Assembly (NCBI GenBank): GCA_964016885.1
Contig: OZ024742.1
Coordinates: 332,816,001-332,880,000 of the forward strand
Direction: 5' to 3'
DNA length: 64,000 bases
Source: Eledone cirrhosa
Lineage: Eukaryota
The notes below the pieces were generated by a model that saw only the letters and a list, made by a program, of their open reading frames with translations, was not told the origin of the DNA and ran no database searches. Numbering within the stretch: the stretch's first letter is position 1; every line of letters begins with the position of its first letter. Shown here piece by piece: positions 4,861 to 46,884 of this stretch. The translations under genes were made by a program, and so were the position numbers.

Positions 4861-5678
4861 GTCCATGTTCTCTCTCTCTCTCTCTCTCTCTCTCTCTCTC
4901 TCTCTCTCTCTCTCTCTCTCTCTCTCTCTCTCTCTCTCTCTCTCGCTATTTATATATATATATATATATATATATATATATATATATATATATATATATA
5001 TATATATATATATATATATATATATATATATGTATATATATATATATATTTATTAAAATAACAGATTAAAGTTTAAGCAAAGAAATGGTGCTTTCACCCT
5101 TAACGGGATCTTCTGAAACAAAAAAAGTCAATCTGTGAACGCAGAAGTAAACATTTCAAAAAACGTTGCATATATATATCTATATATATCTCACTCACTC
5201 TCTCATTCTCCCTCTGTTTCGTTATATATATATATATATATATATATATATATATATATGTGTGTGTGTGTGTGTGTGTGTGTGTTAGTGTGTGTGTGTG
5301 TGTGTGTGTGTGTGTGTGTGTGTGTGTGTGTGTGTGTGTGTGTGTGCGTGTGTGTGTGTGTCCGCATGTGTATGGGCGTGTGTGTATTTTTTATTTGCCA
5401 TTTTACTGTTCGTCGAACAGTTTTGTCTACTTGTCTATTCTTTGTGTTTTGTAGTTCTGTTAGACTCTTTTTGTAACCGACTCATGTTTTGCTTAGTTTC
5501 TAATTTGGCAGTAGCGATATGGTAGAAATTCGTGTCACCGAGTTGATCAACAACAACAAAAAAAGCACCAGTATTAACAACGGCAACCACAACAAAACAG
5601 CAGAAGAAACCTCAACGGCAACGACAACAACGACGAAGCATATAACTATGAGAGCAGCAACAACAAAGAAAATAACAA

Positions 5679-5711
5679 CTAGAAACTCACGTTCGTAGCA
5701 AGGGCTGCGAA
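5679..5711 (-). mobile_element. Helitron-like 3' terminus
   Basis: Minus strand reads TTCGCAGC-cctt-GCTACGAA (hairpin), a 9-nt spacer, then CTAG|T. Confidence 0.5.
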
Positions 5712-6427
5712 AAATCTGTAATTATTCCATATAGTGGATAAAACATAGTCCACCCCCAGCTGAGTTATTGACAGCAACATAAAAAGCACACTTAATTAGG
5801 GGTGTATCGGCATCACGTGCAAAAAGCCGGGGCTGGCGCCACAATCCCTCGTCTAAACACCTCTGAAAGACTTCATGCCAGAAATGCAACATGTTACAAA
5901 GCCGATCAGTTTGGTAGTATATCAGTTCTCTTCAAATGTGAGAACCTCGCAAAGAAATACTTTGTGTTCCCTTGTAAAAAGGACAAATACATAATGGAGG
6001 CGATTTTTGGACCCAGCTCATTTGTAGTTCCTGAAACACAAATGATATTGCGAATCTCACTAGGGGCCACAAGAAGAGTAAGGAGTACTTCCTCCACGAT
6101 ATGTGAACTCCTAATATAACATCCACGAGTAGGCTATAATCACGTGTAGGACGGACCCGGCTTTCAACTGAGTCCATCATGAATATCGCTGCCACTTCTT
6201 TCTTTTGGTAAGGACGGTAGGCAGTTATCTGTCTGTTTGCTGTAACGAAAGTGGTTATGTGGTGGGTTCGAGTAAAAGGACTGAGGACAGTTACTTTCCT
6301 CTTCTGCCAATTCCTCACCAACTTTTTCAAGTTCCACTTGGAAATTAATATGGGCTTTTACAGAGGGTGCAGCACTACGCCTACATATATGAAAAGCTGG
6401 GTGTATTGGTGAGAATTGATGGGCCTG

Positions 6428-6480
6428 AAGTTTCAGAAGATCCAGTTAAGGGTGAAAGCAGCGATTCTTTGCTTAAACTT
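6428..6480 (+). ncRNA. Type I hammerhead variant with a U4A core (inverted copy at 5069-5119)
   Basis: aagttt-CAGAAGA-tcc agttaa gggt-GAAA-gca..tgc-TT-aaactt; stems I and III pair; CAGAAGA occurs in both copies. Confidence 0.65.
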
Positions 6481-42857: not shown

Positions 42858-42920
42858 TATATATATATATATATATATATATATATATATATATATATAT
42901 ATATATATATATATATATAT

Positions 42921-43846
42921 ATAACGAAGGAAATGTGGTAAGGAACCAGGTGGACCATAACGCACCAAAGTACTCAATACTTGGGGCAGTAGAGTGGGTA
43001 ATAGGAACCAGTAAGACCCCGACGGCTGAGCTCAAGCCGTTTCGACGGCTAATTCTGGACTAAATGAAAATTTATCCTGGTATTTAAATAGCCGATCTTC
43101 TCAAGGGGTAATTCCATATATGGTCAGAGTGATTGTCAAAAGTCAGTAGTAATTCTGTGATTGCAAATTAGTAGGGGAGATGGTGGCTAAACCTGCCAGT
43201 AGCAGAAAGAGCGGAGGGGGTGGAGTAGACCCAATCAAGCGTTGGTAGTGCCAGCTACAGCTGGGCATGAGGTCAAAGAAGATACTGGGGAGGGAGAGGG
43301 GGAGGAAGTCGGAACGGTAGGTAGAACAATGAGCGGTAAAAATATATATGAAAGAAAAAATACTGAGAGTGAAGAAAAGCGAATAAGTGTAAAGAAAAAA
43401 GTAGCCTAACAATAGCTAGAGACTTAGGTCGTAGAACTTGCTTTACTTTTTTCTTTACACTTATTCGCTTTTCTTCACTCTCAGTATTTTTTTCTTTCAT
43501 ATATATTTTTACCCCTCATTGTTCTACCTACCGTTCCGACTTCCTCCCCCTCCCCCTCCCCAGTATCTTCTTTGACCTCATGCCTAGCTGTAGCTGGCAC
43601 TTCCAATGCTTGATTGGGTCTACTCCACCCCCTCCCCTCTTTCTCCTACTGGCAGGTTTAGCCACCATCTCCCCTACTAATTTGCAATCACAGAATTACT
43701 ACTGACTTTTGACAATCACTTTGACCATATATGGAATTACCCCTTGAGAAGATCGACTATTTAAATACCAGGATACATTTTCATTTAGTCCAGAATTAGC
43801 CGTCGAAACGGCTTCAGCTCAGCCGTCGGGGTCTTACTGGTTCCTA
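42921..43846 (-). mobile_element. Fold-back element, family B (copy 4, ~400-bp arms)
   Basis: 43002-43403 is inverted relative to 43444-43846; same termini as the other B copies. Confidence 0.92.
43739..43832 (+). ncRNA. Type I hammerhead variant with a U3:A8 core (inverted copy at 43016-43109)
   Basis: acccc-TTGAGAA-gatcg(g/a)cta..tagccgtc-GAAA-cggct..agccg-TC-ggggt. Confidence 0.75.
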
Positions 43847-43909
43847 TATATATATATATATATATATATATATATATATATATATATATATATATATATA
43901 TATATATAT

Positions 43910-46884
43910 TAAAGTGTTAAACGATATTCAATGATTATGTCAAAGAATGTGTTTTACAGTAGATTGGAAGCACTCTACGAAAAAAGTTTTCGGAGTTATT
44001 AATATTAAAATATAAATATTAATAAAATAGATGTTCTTTTGATCAATTACATTTTTTTATACATATTTCGGATGTACAACAGTACGTCCTCATCAGACAA
44101 AATATTTTGATACATGACATACCCTGAGATGTTAAATGGTTAAGGTTTAATCAAGGTAGTGATTAGCCTAAGAGAAAATTTTACATATATAGCCTAATTA
44201 TGAGAAAATGCGAAAACGTAATAAATTCATTAGAGAATGTGTGAGTAAGAAAAACGTTGCTTACTGTAACTGTTCTAGAGGTTTTAAAATGTATGATACT
44301 ACGATATATCTAGGAAAACGTCTCATGAATCATAACAGCCAGTGATAGCCACTGGAAAAAGATTTATAAAGAGGGAAAGATAAATGGTTTAGGGGGGGGG
44401 GGTATATATATGTAGAAGGAGAATGTTTCCGAAAGTTAAACCGTTAAATTTGAAAATATTTATGGTGAAGACTCCAGATTTCAGGATTATTTGCTGGTTA
44501 TTTATATATTATTTTTATAAATTCGATAAGTGTGTTATCATTTCTAAGCTTCTGAATTTTATGAGGGTAACATTTAAAGGATTTAGCTGGCACATAAATA
44601 ATGAAATATTATACTGTTGATTATTTACCTAAATTTAAACTTTAACAAAGATACCAACATATTAGGTATGTAAAGCTTTTGAAGTACTTATTGTTATAAA
44701 TATTTAAATAACGATTATGTATATAGGTATATATTAATGAGCCATGTAAATAATAACGACGAAGATAAAAATAAAATAAGATAATAGATTGAGGCATGTT
44801 AAGTATAAATATACACCTATGTATAACTGGGTGTAAATGTATTAATTATTCTTCAACCAAGATATCAACATATTATTAGATATAGGGAGGTATATATATA
44901 GATATATATTAGGTATTAGTAGTATAGTATTCTTTAGGTAAGTGATAACAGTTATAATTTTATAAAGTAGAGTTCAACATGTTACATTTAAATACATATA
45001 TAAATATATATAAGAAAAACAATAATGAGTGCATGGATAATTCAGAGTTCAGAATAATGACTATAATAATTTTTAGTTTGGATATTTTCTCTATATTTGA
45101 ATCATATATATAGAAATGTGGTAGGTATATTTAAAAATATTAAAAAATATATAAAATATAATATATAACTACATACATATTATAATACATTATATTATAA
45201 ATAAGAGATTCAAAGCGCAGCAAAAATTCGCATTTATATATAAGTGTGAATCTGTCTTAAATTTTAGATTTTAAAGTGCAGTAAATATATTTAAAAGAAA
45301 TATATGCATATACTATATTATATTATACTATAAATAAGAGATCAAAAACTCATTAAAAATTCACAGTTATAGATAAGTTCCATAAAAGTTTATGGATTGG
45401 GTATTAAACTAAAATTTAAAAGAGATCAAAAATGTATTAAAAATTCTTAGTTATAGATAACTTCCGTAAATATGTAAGGGTTAGGTATTATACTAAATTA
45501 TAAGCATAGATAGGAAGATAGATAGAGAAATAAAGAAATAAAGAAATGATGGTATTGATCAAAGTTAACAAAATAATGTTATGTGTATCAATGTTCAGGC
45601 ATGTTATTGAACAAGTGTCATTCATTCGAGCGTTGTTTCTTCTATAGATAGCTATAATATAAAGCAATATTAAAGGCCATTAATGTTTTTCACTGTAAAT
45701 TATATATTCCTGGTAACCAAGTTATTATTGGTTTGGTGTTATTGCCTCTTTTGTTTTTTTCGTTTTATGGGAGGCTAAAAAAGTGGACGTAGCTTTATTC
45801 AGGCAACTAGAGAATAATTCACTTTTTTGTTTAATAGGGTCTCATAGTTATTAATAATCAACAGGGTCTCCATTGTAGAGAGCGGGCAGTTATTTGATAT
45901 ACTAGAGTTGGGGTAAATTCCACAGTTCCGAAGTTTTGTCCAAAGAATGGAGTATTTTAAATCCTTCTCTTTTAATGACCATATGAGCTGTGATAAAGAC
46001 GTGGATGATTTCCTCTTAGAGTTCGATAGTGAGCATTTATGGTTCGCAAAACGGTCTTTGAATGTGGAAGAGGTTGAACCAATGTAGTTGTATGTTTTGT
46101 GATCAGTTTTTACGGTGTATTTATAAACCAAATTACTATCTAAACAATTATTTTCCAAAGGGCAATTAGTTTTATTCCTACAATTATATTTTGGTTTAGT
46201 ATCATTTATGTTAACTCTATTATTATGATCATTATGCTGGTTTGGTTTTAGGATTTTGGCGTTTAATTTGGCAATGTTTTGGGCCTAAATTGGTAATTAA
46301 TTTATAGGCTTCTTCATTAATTCCAGTAAGATCCCCAGCCGGGGCTTTTTTGCAATTTTTCCTAAGTTCTTTCAAAATCAGGTCGTTATATTCATCTTTG
46401 CTTATCCCATATAAATTATTAGTTTTGTCCGATTTAACCAATACTTTGTTAACATTTTTTATTCCAGTGATTTTATCTTTTAGAGATCTGAGGTATTGGT
46501 GACCTATCAACCTTTATCTTTCCCTCTTTATAAATCCTTTTCCAGTGGCTATCACTGGCTGTTATGATTCATGAGACGTTTTCGTAGATATATCGTAGTA
46601 TCATACATTTCAAAACCACTAGAACAGTTACAGTAAGCAATGTTTTTCTTACTCACACATTCTCTAATGAATTTATTACGTTTTCGCATTTTCTCATAAT
46701 TAGGCTATATATGTAAACTTTTCTCTGGGGTAATCACTACCTTGATTAAATCTTAACACATCAGCGTATGTCATGTATCATTATATTTTGTCTGATGAGG
46801 ACGTACTGTTGTACATCCGAAATACGTATAATAAAATGTAATTGATCAAAAGAACATCTATTTTATTAATATTTATATTTTAAT
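43910..46884 (-). mobile_element. Internally deleted Hydra-like PLE with an inverted ~375-bp arm (46511-46884)
   Basis: ORF pieces KVLVKSDKTNNLY and CPLENNCLDSNLVYKYTV..YIGST..FKDRFANHK; RT core missing; arm matches 44004-44385; related to the element at 1-3235. Confidence 0.88.
46782..46840 (+). ncRNA. Type I hammerhead ribozyme (inverted copy at 44048-44105)
   Basis: tatattttgt-CTGATGA-ggacgtac tgtt gtacatcc-GAAA-tacgta-TA-ataaaatgta. Confidence 0.88.

Follow-up and report, generated by a model that had tools for sequence, protein, structure and literature searches.

Penelope-like elements (PLEs) encode reverse transcriptases (RTs) that are the closest relatives of telomerase. For those that also carry an endonuclease (EN+ PLEs), the accessible portions of the papers cited here describe insertions with an inverted truncated copy, a tail at one side only and a preference for (TA)n (PMC8557442, PMC3846280). 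Self-priming, which comes close to the idea of an earlier note on the DNA studied below, was proposed in 2013 for the palindromic turns (PMC3846280), and the origin of the inverted and tailed insertions has been named as an open problem (PMC8557442). A promoter internal to the pseudo-long terminal repeat (pLTR) has been published for Penelope (PMC2377424, PMC3846280), truncated PLEs are reported with nearby hammerheads on opposite strands (PMC4209133), and an anole PLE has been shown in vitro to cut both strands and to extend them, with two start sites that delimit the tail (PMC11167929). Here, we analysed the PLE-related insertions of a 64,000-nucleotide stretch of Eledone cirrhosa DNA (contig OZ024742.1, positions 332,816,001 to 332,880,000; hereafter the window; GC 36%, 104 TA tracts; parent assembly 3.0 Gb). 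Fold-back inserts, in which a tailed arm and an inverted tail-less arm meet at a turn, are real and very abundant in this genome, and their layout is the one already published for PLEs. The earlier note was correct in relating them to PLEs, in taking TA as their target and in describing outer ends that are fixed at both sides, with turns that vary; it explained them by a complementary DNA (cDNA) that starts at the tail, folds back on itself and halts at a programmed stop. Our counts support a different model: dual target-primed reverse transcription, with two fixed start sites on the RNA, is the probable way in which the inserts form.

The analysed set consisted of the window and 345 further loci, with overlapping loci de-duplicated: 119 systematic, evenly spaced stretches of 10 kb each (1.19 Mb in total), the 180 best matches to tail-containing queries, the 30 best matches to the endonuclease of family B and 16 chosen long loci. 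The inserts fall into eight sequence families, A to H, of which F, G and H were described from the window and a few loci and left out of the counts. Outer ends were scored only where a TA-like flank was present, and old, diverged copies are under-counted. Extrapolated from the 1.19-Mb systematic sample, the genome would hold about 60,000-75,000 TA-anchored inserts of each of families A, B and E, and about 7,500 of family D.

A first line of evidence is the pairing of the ends. Among two-ended inserts, 138 of 140 have one tailed and one tail-less end; loci that were not picked by a tail query behave alike (38/39; p ~1e-10 against a 50:50 choice), and only 1 of 95 inserts in which a second tail was detectable is tailed at both ends. 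Clean one-armed inserts of either type also occur among the unpaired ends, the tail-less ones reaching up to 2.5 kb and including L310 and L311 (>2 kb), L064 and L077, and in the long inserts L343 and L344 a short tailed arm is accompanied by a tail-less arm of >1.3 kb. A tail-less end found alone on one-armed inserts points to a start site rather than to a stop, and the programmed stop that had been proposed for this end is not borne out. Raw Illumina reads of restriction-site-associated DNA (RAD) libraries, from three other samples of the same species label, contain opposite-strand joints of families B and A as well as, in each run, 2,300-3,500 reads in which TA directly adjoins the tail-less end on its outer side. 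They include joints of B and A where the tailed piece ends at or inside the tail, mostly seen from one or few read start positions and from libraries whose cut sites favour asymmetric B copies. Such reads test families B and A, not the individual window loci; yet joints present in other samples mean that the inserts are not an assembly artefact. In family A, read depth steps at position 161, away from an AATT site. A fall in read depth in family B was set aside as confounded, since the read ends concerned (43054, 43113 and L295:1513) lie on AATT and look like restriction cuts. Separately, the reads of three samples contain a joint between 42924 and 43001 that leads from tail end to tail-less end via ATA only; this is probably one locus with adjacent inserts, although it may alternatively be a circle junction.

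How could such inserts arise? We suggest that a GIY-YIG endonuclease cuts both strands about 14 bp apart and leaves 3' overhangs, as the target duplications imply. One DNA end would then start at the tail end of the RNA (S1) and the other at a second site (S2), 35-95 nt nearer the RNA 5' end; S1 and S2 are seen as genomic end points, and we infer their role as starts. Judging from common subfamily variants, the template of both arms would be a single RNA molecule or RNAs from one and the same source locus. The site at which many arms end inwardly may be the transcription start, in which case most tiny hairpins would be run-off copies begun at an S1/S2 pair close to the 5' end of the RNA; the S1/S2 pair in the 3' repeat would give rise to the long arms that bear an open reading frame (ORF). 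Finally, a template jump or microhomology repair would join the cDNA ends head to head, so that turns could be blunt, show microhomology or carry inserted bases. In this scheme, a single RNA as template and the inner-end site as transcription start are plausible hypotheses.

The strongest rival is snap-back, in which a cDNA begun at the tail would fold back to serve as its own template and halt at a fixed point, asymmetry being added by later central deletion of the palindrome. We consider it unlikely as the general route. If a tail-started cDNA folds back, the tailed arm must reach at least as far as the tail-less arm, and the tail-less end should never stand alone; neither holds. To compare reach, a cleaner set of 128 simple events was used, because the 138 include chained events (e.g. 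L056), whose reach is only approximate, and a complex family C event, L114, wrongly scored as equal. In this set the tail-less arm is longer by at least 3 nt in 61 events, 23 have equal arms with almost no loop, and 22 have a longer tailed arm lacking microhomology. The remaining 22 are compatible with unmodified snap-back, which weighs against dual priming; of these, 16 have a loop together with microhomology, and 6 have an intrinsic palindrome at their centre. They include the window inserts at 27849 and 42119, two of the four family B examples, both of which turn at intrinsic palindromes. Snap-back also accounts for the common variants of the two arms and for the 43 of 138 events whose arms are equal within 5 nt. 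When only differences above 5 nt are considered, the tail-less arm is longer in 56 of the simple events and the tailed arm in 31 (p = 0.01), and in the systematic sample the figures are 13 and 3 of 21. Moreover, in 16 of 138 events the tailed piece does not get past the tail, or gets past it by no more than about 5 nt, so that there is hardly any arm, or none, on which to fold back. Long palindromes are known to undergo asymmetric deletion at their centre, and snap-back would need this as a second step in the 61 events; yet identity to the reference is alike for asymmetric and symmetric inserts (95.2% vs 95.5%, p = 0.11). Asymmetry that does not rise with divergence argues against later decay, very rapid deletion after insertion being the remaining alternative, and near-perfect short hairpins persist in large numbers. 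Added to this, one-armed tail-less inserts and an insert tail-less at both ends exist, zero-loop turns are difficult to obtain by folding, and a stop at S2 has no known reason, whereas a start there is backed in vitro in another PLE, as far as the accessible text of that study goes. Snap-back with a programmed stop is thus at most a minor route.

The turns themselves vary in sequence from copy to copy. In the 128 simple events, zero-loop palindromes included, 56 turns show microhomology, 12 are blunt and 60 carry inserted bases. Those of L027, L005, L022 and L010 contain short duplications of nearby element sequence, like the products of templated-insertion end joining or RT slippage. A different object is the 373-bp palindrome at 48939-49311 (95%), which has no TA flanks and no match in the analysed loci, and a short piece of whose centre recurs just after the right arm; it may be a fold-back of host repair and would then be a better candidate for a true snap-back.

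Evidence on the cut and the starts comes mainly from family B. Six of 18 informative inserts, the window insert at 11166 among them, exactly duplicate an interrupted TA stretch over 14-16 bp, a geometry that implies 3' overhangs at both ends; the other 12 lack a duplicated interruption, which tells against the scheme, and 40 further events lie in pure TA and are uninformative on duplication. ATA stands at both B start sites, matching the target, and all five S2 contexts examined are AT-rich and target-like. A hairpin with a conserved RCUC/GAGY closing stem lies beyond S2, at 6-10 nt, in families A to D and, in B and A, likewise beyond S1; family F carries the motif with the predicted pairing absent. 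A looser version of this hairpin is found in 87 of 1,667 background windows, and the repeat between the sequences beside S1 and S2 is weak by local alignment. These data bear on another explanation, termed EN-mediated resolution (PMC8557442), in which the tail is the starting point at both ends and one of the two tails is afterwards cut off by the endonuclease at an AT-rich site. The target-like S2 contexts suit it, and in the accessible part of the literature it is the preferred origin of the tail (PMC8557442). It would, however, require exact removal of the tail and rejoining to TA with the 14-bp duplication kept; in B and A, S1 and S2 each have a similar hairpin about equally far away, which looks like two equivalent start signals, and in vitro starts have been reported at both tail boundaries (PMC11167929). 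We therefore regard trimming as very improbable.

Under dual priming, the arms and their inner ends may tell something about the template. The two arms agree at subfamily-diagnostic sites in 374 of 383 comparisons, namely 257 of 264 in B (141 expected if independent) and 117 of 119 in E (62 expected). Such concordance fits one RNA copied twice and RNAs of one active locus, as well as snap-back or gene conversion. The inner ends pile up: in B, 89 of 180 fall in positions 128-142 and 3 in the next 15 nt, a hot spot inflated for tailed arms by those loci that were selected for coverage of B positions 1-137; in D, 20 of 54 fall in 242-256 and 1 in the next 15 nt; in A, 28 of 108 fall in 147-161 and 4 in the next 15 nt. 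Every pile-up contains the A of a TCA/TTA motif, of a kind found at 1-3.5% of positions, which we take to be initiator-like. This A lies at the upper edge of the pile-up in B and A, and 5 nt inside the edge in D. The pile-up is likely the RNA 5' end and would then mark the transcription start. Other candidates were discarded: ribozyme cutting at the B hot spot, for no hammerhead core was found in B; hammerhead cut sites as the D and E hot spots, for few ends lie near them and the case was unconvincing; and an E peak at 467-481, which is an alignment break at a (CA)n tract. Where a single arm reaches the pile-up, it is the tail-less one in 26 of 33 cases, a bias that would suit one polymerase leading and another trailing, and that the shorter way from S2 would explain just as well.

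A more far-reaching proposal, for at least two clades of EN+ PLEs, is integration as an asymmetric dimer on a single RNA, the leading RT using the inner site and the trailing RT the outer one. We offer it tentatively, as a possibility that these data leave somewhat in doubt. The trailing RT would displace the first cDNA, and in Hydra-type families the twin hairpins would set both starts; the RTs would run off the capped 5' end, and one would jump onto the cDNA of the other, so that second-strand synthesis and joining would be a single event. If so, most of the ~200,000 stumps of A, B, D and E would be abortive products of the promoter-proximal start pair and would map transcription starts.

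Several observations weigh against dual priming or its individual steps. Insert L342 is tail-less at both ends, L102 is tailed at both, and the family G insert L162 is probably a further exception to the one-of-each pairing. After parsing, 153 tailed and 71 tail-less outer ends remain unpaired, a mixture of true one-armed inserts and parsing failures, and the sample is dominated by best-scoring, that is young, copies. Concordance of the arms is uninformative in D and weak in A, the B event L015 differs at two diagnostic sites, and snap-back or gene conversion would predict concordance equally well. The transcription start is read from a motif noticed after the fact, and family E has a broad inner-end cluster only, with what is presumably a YY1-like motif nearby. 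The RCUC/GAGY hairpin is absent in E, in G and at the C tandem junction. Furthermore, in the accessible account of the anole system, start sites are used equally on the two strands, with no homology to the cut DNA (PMC11167929); thus, the in vitro result alone does not predict the one-of-each rule. A last explanation, that the short hairpins are non-autonomous units replicating whole or assembly artefacts, draws on the tens of thousands of similar short inserts per family and on the C, G and H tandem units in which no ORF was found, but it is largely refuted and hardly credible, as turn sequences vary between copies, B hairpins are the ends of an intact coding element, and the joints are present in raw reads of other samples.

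In the window, self-alignment and the sequence itself uphold 11 of the 12 fold-backs that the earlier note had listed as tail-arm-turn-arm inserts, starting at 8677, 11166, 24062, 26672, 27849, 28045, 40625, 42119, 42451, 42924 and 43910. The twelfth, at 5049, is not a single fold-back: between its tail-less and its tailed piece lie 1,260 bp made up of microsatellites, an older, unrelated repeat and other DNA. The features are as follows, with the strand where one is assigned and with putative hammerhead cores identified from sequence.

5050-5169, minus strand: family A, one-armed tail-less piece that ends in TA.
6430-6586, plus strand: family A, tailed piece with its inner end at the candidate run-off hot spot; no direct joint to 5050-5169.
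8677-9361, plus strand: family G, inverted tail-less arm (8677-8765), then a ~370-nt tandem unit and a right-hand tail; putative hammerhead cores at 8794 and 9152.
11166-11354: family B, short hairpin turning at the candidate run-off hot spot; 14-bp target duplication containing a TA-tract interruption.
24062-24429: family H, fold-back with right-hand tail; its relatives are tandem units at ~525-nt spacing.
25038-26004, minus strand: family C, direct tandem of ~1.8 units.
26672-27035: family F, older fold-back with a longer tailed arm.
27849-27983: family B, hairpin centred on an intrinsic 19-nt palindrome; fits either mechanism.
28045-28166: family A, tail of ~87 nt and a tiny hairpin.
40625-42065, plus strand: family E, Neptune/Nematis-type PLE fragment; short tailed arm (40625-40735), then a long ORF-bearing piece with tail-less end at 42065; probable endonuclease frame 41109-41675; putative hammerhead core at 41875 (plus).
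42119-42276: family B, hairpin with tailed arm longer by 10 nt; turn at an intrinsic stem-loop, snap-back-compatible.
42298-42365: family A, tail-less arm and the first few tail bases only; a hairpin is impossible.
42451-42855: family C, fold-back of the 538-540-nt tandem unit, in which no ORF or hammerhead core was found.
42924-43844: family B, tail (42924-43003), tailed arm to ~43403 and inverted tail-less arm (~43402-43844), the latter ~40 nt deeper into the element (reach 522 vs 480).
43910-46884, minus strand: family D, 5'-truncated Hydra-type PLE; tail (43910-44003) continuous with the long piece, inverted tail-less arm (46509-46884), GIY-YIG frame 45802-46284, putative hammerhead cores at 44096 (minus) and 46792 (plus).

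At 8677 and 24062 the tail is on the right, unlike in the order (TA)n, tail, arm, turn, arm, (TA)n that had been described before, and (TG)n lies to the left of 8677; at 40625, the long ORF-bearing piece runs into the tail-less end and not into the tailed one. Family B arms of about 27, 39, 55 and 400 bp agree with those given before, tails measure about 35 to 95 nt, and the fixed outer ends extend genome-wide, B matches in the 119 systematic stretches starting at position 1 (26/56) or 78 (12/56). Hammerheads, claimed for many families, were found as putative cores in D, E and G only of the eight. The families, called unrelated before, do not align with each other at the DNA level, but A, B, C, D and, weakly, F have the common hairpin beside their ends, so that not all of the families are unrelated.

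As far as their sequences indicate, the inserts are stumps or ends of endonuclease-bearing PLEs (B, D and E) together with tandem units in which no ORF was found. Family B corresponds to the 3' end of an autonomous element whose unit measures 3,545 nt and has a single ORF of 723 aa, in which RT-type motifs and, C-terminally, GIY-YIG-type endonuclease motifs were recognised by eye; this ORF has 1,242 homologues, unnamed or hypothetical, and searched alone against Pfam it gave no match. Together with tandem or partial-tandem pLTR units, an inverted 5'-truncated copy and a one-sided tail, this is the anatomy of an EN+ PLE. The B protein has DKT, RW-basic (RWR instead of RWK), a CxCx5C linker, and CxxC and CxH around E and N, with no CCHH. 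Family D is otherwise like B, with a damaged linker and endonuclease end only, a GIY-YIG match too weak to reach the curated cut-off (E 0.0025), and a hammerhead. A canonical hammerhead, expected in the Hydra clade and present in D, was not found in the complete B unit; B is therefore on its motifs called Hydra-type and not filed as a clade member. In family E, the linker (CX2-5CxxC) and a CCHH motif in the endonuclease frame, both recognised by eye, match the Neptune/Nematis description, and E is by these motifs Neptune/Nematis-type. No ORF was established in the examined sequences of A, C, F, G and H. Families C, G and H are tandem units of ~540, 370 and 525 nt, and no hammerhead core was found in the C unit or in the partial A, F and H sequences. 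Set against retrozyme-like non-autonomous units, which are non-coding tandems with a hammerhead and a circular RNA, C, G and H show the tandem arrangement, and G alone a putative hammerhead core. Read in the RNA sense, the inserts of B, D and E have their tail at the 3' end. In full-length tandem B, the tail corresponds to the 5' untranslated region (UTR) of the following unit and stops 94 nt short of the start codon. Rfam gave no match on the whole B unit, and on the window 143 matches at E up to 1, all below the gathering score, mostly microRNA models on repeats and palindromes, with no hammerhead.

The window contains further repeats. A near-full-length GC-rich PLE (16965-22856, minus strand) has 1.2-kb direct repeats, each with a putative hammerhead core, RT and GIY-YIG frames, and TA at both sides; an inverted arm is absent. 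A Hydra-type fragment (1-2586; endonuclease region 627-1067) runs off the left edge, with inverted arms (1-319 and 2269-2586) that are 97% identical, and is followed by a one-armed D-like tailed piece (2970-3232). The fold-back at 15909-16400, not listed in the earlier note and with relatives in loci L102 and L335, has its tail-less end at a TA tract, an RCUC...GAGY motif just beyond the arm and element sequence onward. At 39156-39613, two family-A-like tails stand face to face across a TA tract, with a rearranged inverted segment alongside; this is probably the result of two events. Further repeated families are represented by tiny stubs that are flanked by TA or lie next to it (9378-9410, 9497-9544 and 26383-26438), and each stub has a match in other analysed loci. 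An abundant SINE-like repeat of ~190 nt occurs at 12671-12862, 34495-34688, 47980-48169 and 51720-51884, and part of it is embedded in the 3' UTR of family B (reference ~704-757). Two non-LTR retrotransposons unrelated to PLEs occupy 55179-63319, one with an open RT frame of 1,141 aa and a 723-bp tandem duplication of its 3' end.

A mechanism like the one suggested here is familiar from LINE-1 twin priming, where each end of the target primes on the RNA and joining of the two cDNAs produces an inversion. There the second priming site is variable and the cDNAs cover different segments of the RNA, whereas in the present inserts both sites are fixed and the cDNAs overlap, yielding a palindrome. 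For PLEs, no statement of a one-of-each rule or of dual priming was found in the accessible text of the literature searched, subscription papers lying outside its coverage. Within the same bounds, the complex insertions of EN+ PLEs (PMC3846280, PMC8557442, PMC2377424) resemble ours in the head-to-head inverted copy, the tail at one end, partial tandems, target duplications, microsatellite targets and an initiator-like motif in the pLTR. They differ in tail length (30-40 nt as published, up to 95 nt here), in the mechanism invoked (self-priming with endonuclease resolution, against the two primed cDNAs favoured by our counts) and in that most copies here are stumps of 150-250 nt. The described Hydra clade (PMC8557442) has family B's DKT, RW-basic, CxCx5C and CxxC/CxH motifs and (TA)n insertion; B differs in the canonical hammerhead, not found in it, and in a unit of 3.5 kb as opposed to <3 kb, the comparison being by motif description. 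The anole Poseidon PAc (PMC11167929), as far as its accessible account goes, likewise cuts and extends both strands, has two internal starts that bound the tail, a predicted dimer and AT-rich targets, but there the two sites were not linked to inverted inserts, and no strand difference or target homology was seen, whereas here nearly every insert pairs one end of each kind, and family B matches the target at ATA. Nothing in the layout as such is unusual for PLEs; what we add are genome-wide counts across two clades, raw-read support and the likely run-off site. Overall, these counts join the published idea of self-priming and the two-start-site result into one model, whose predictions can be tested in the existing in vitro system.

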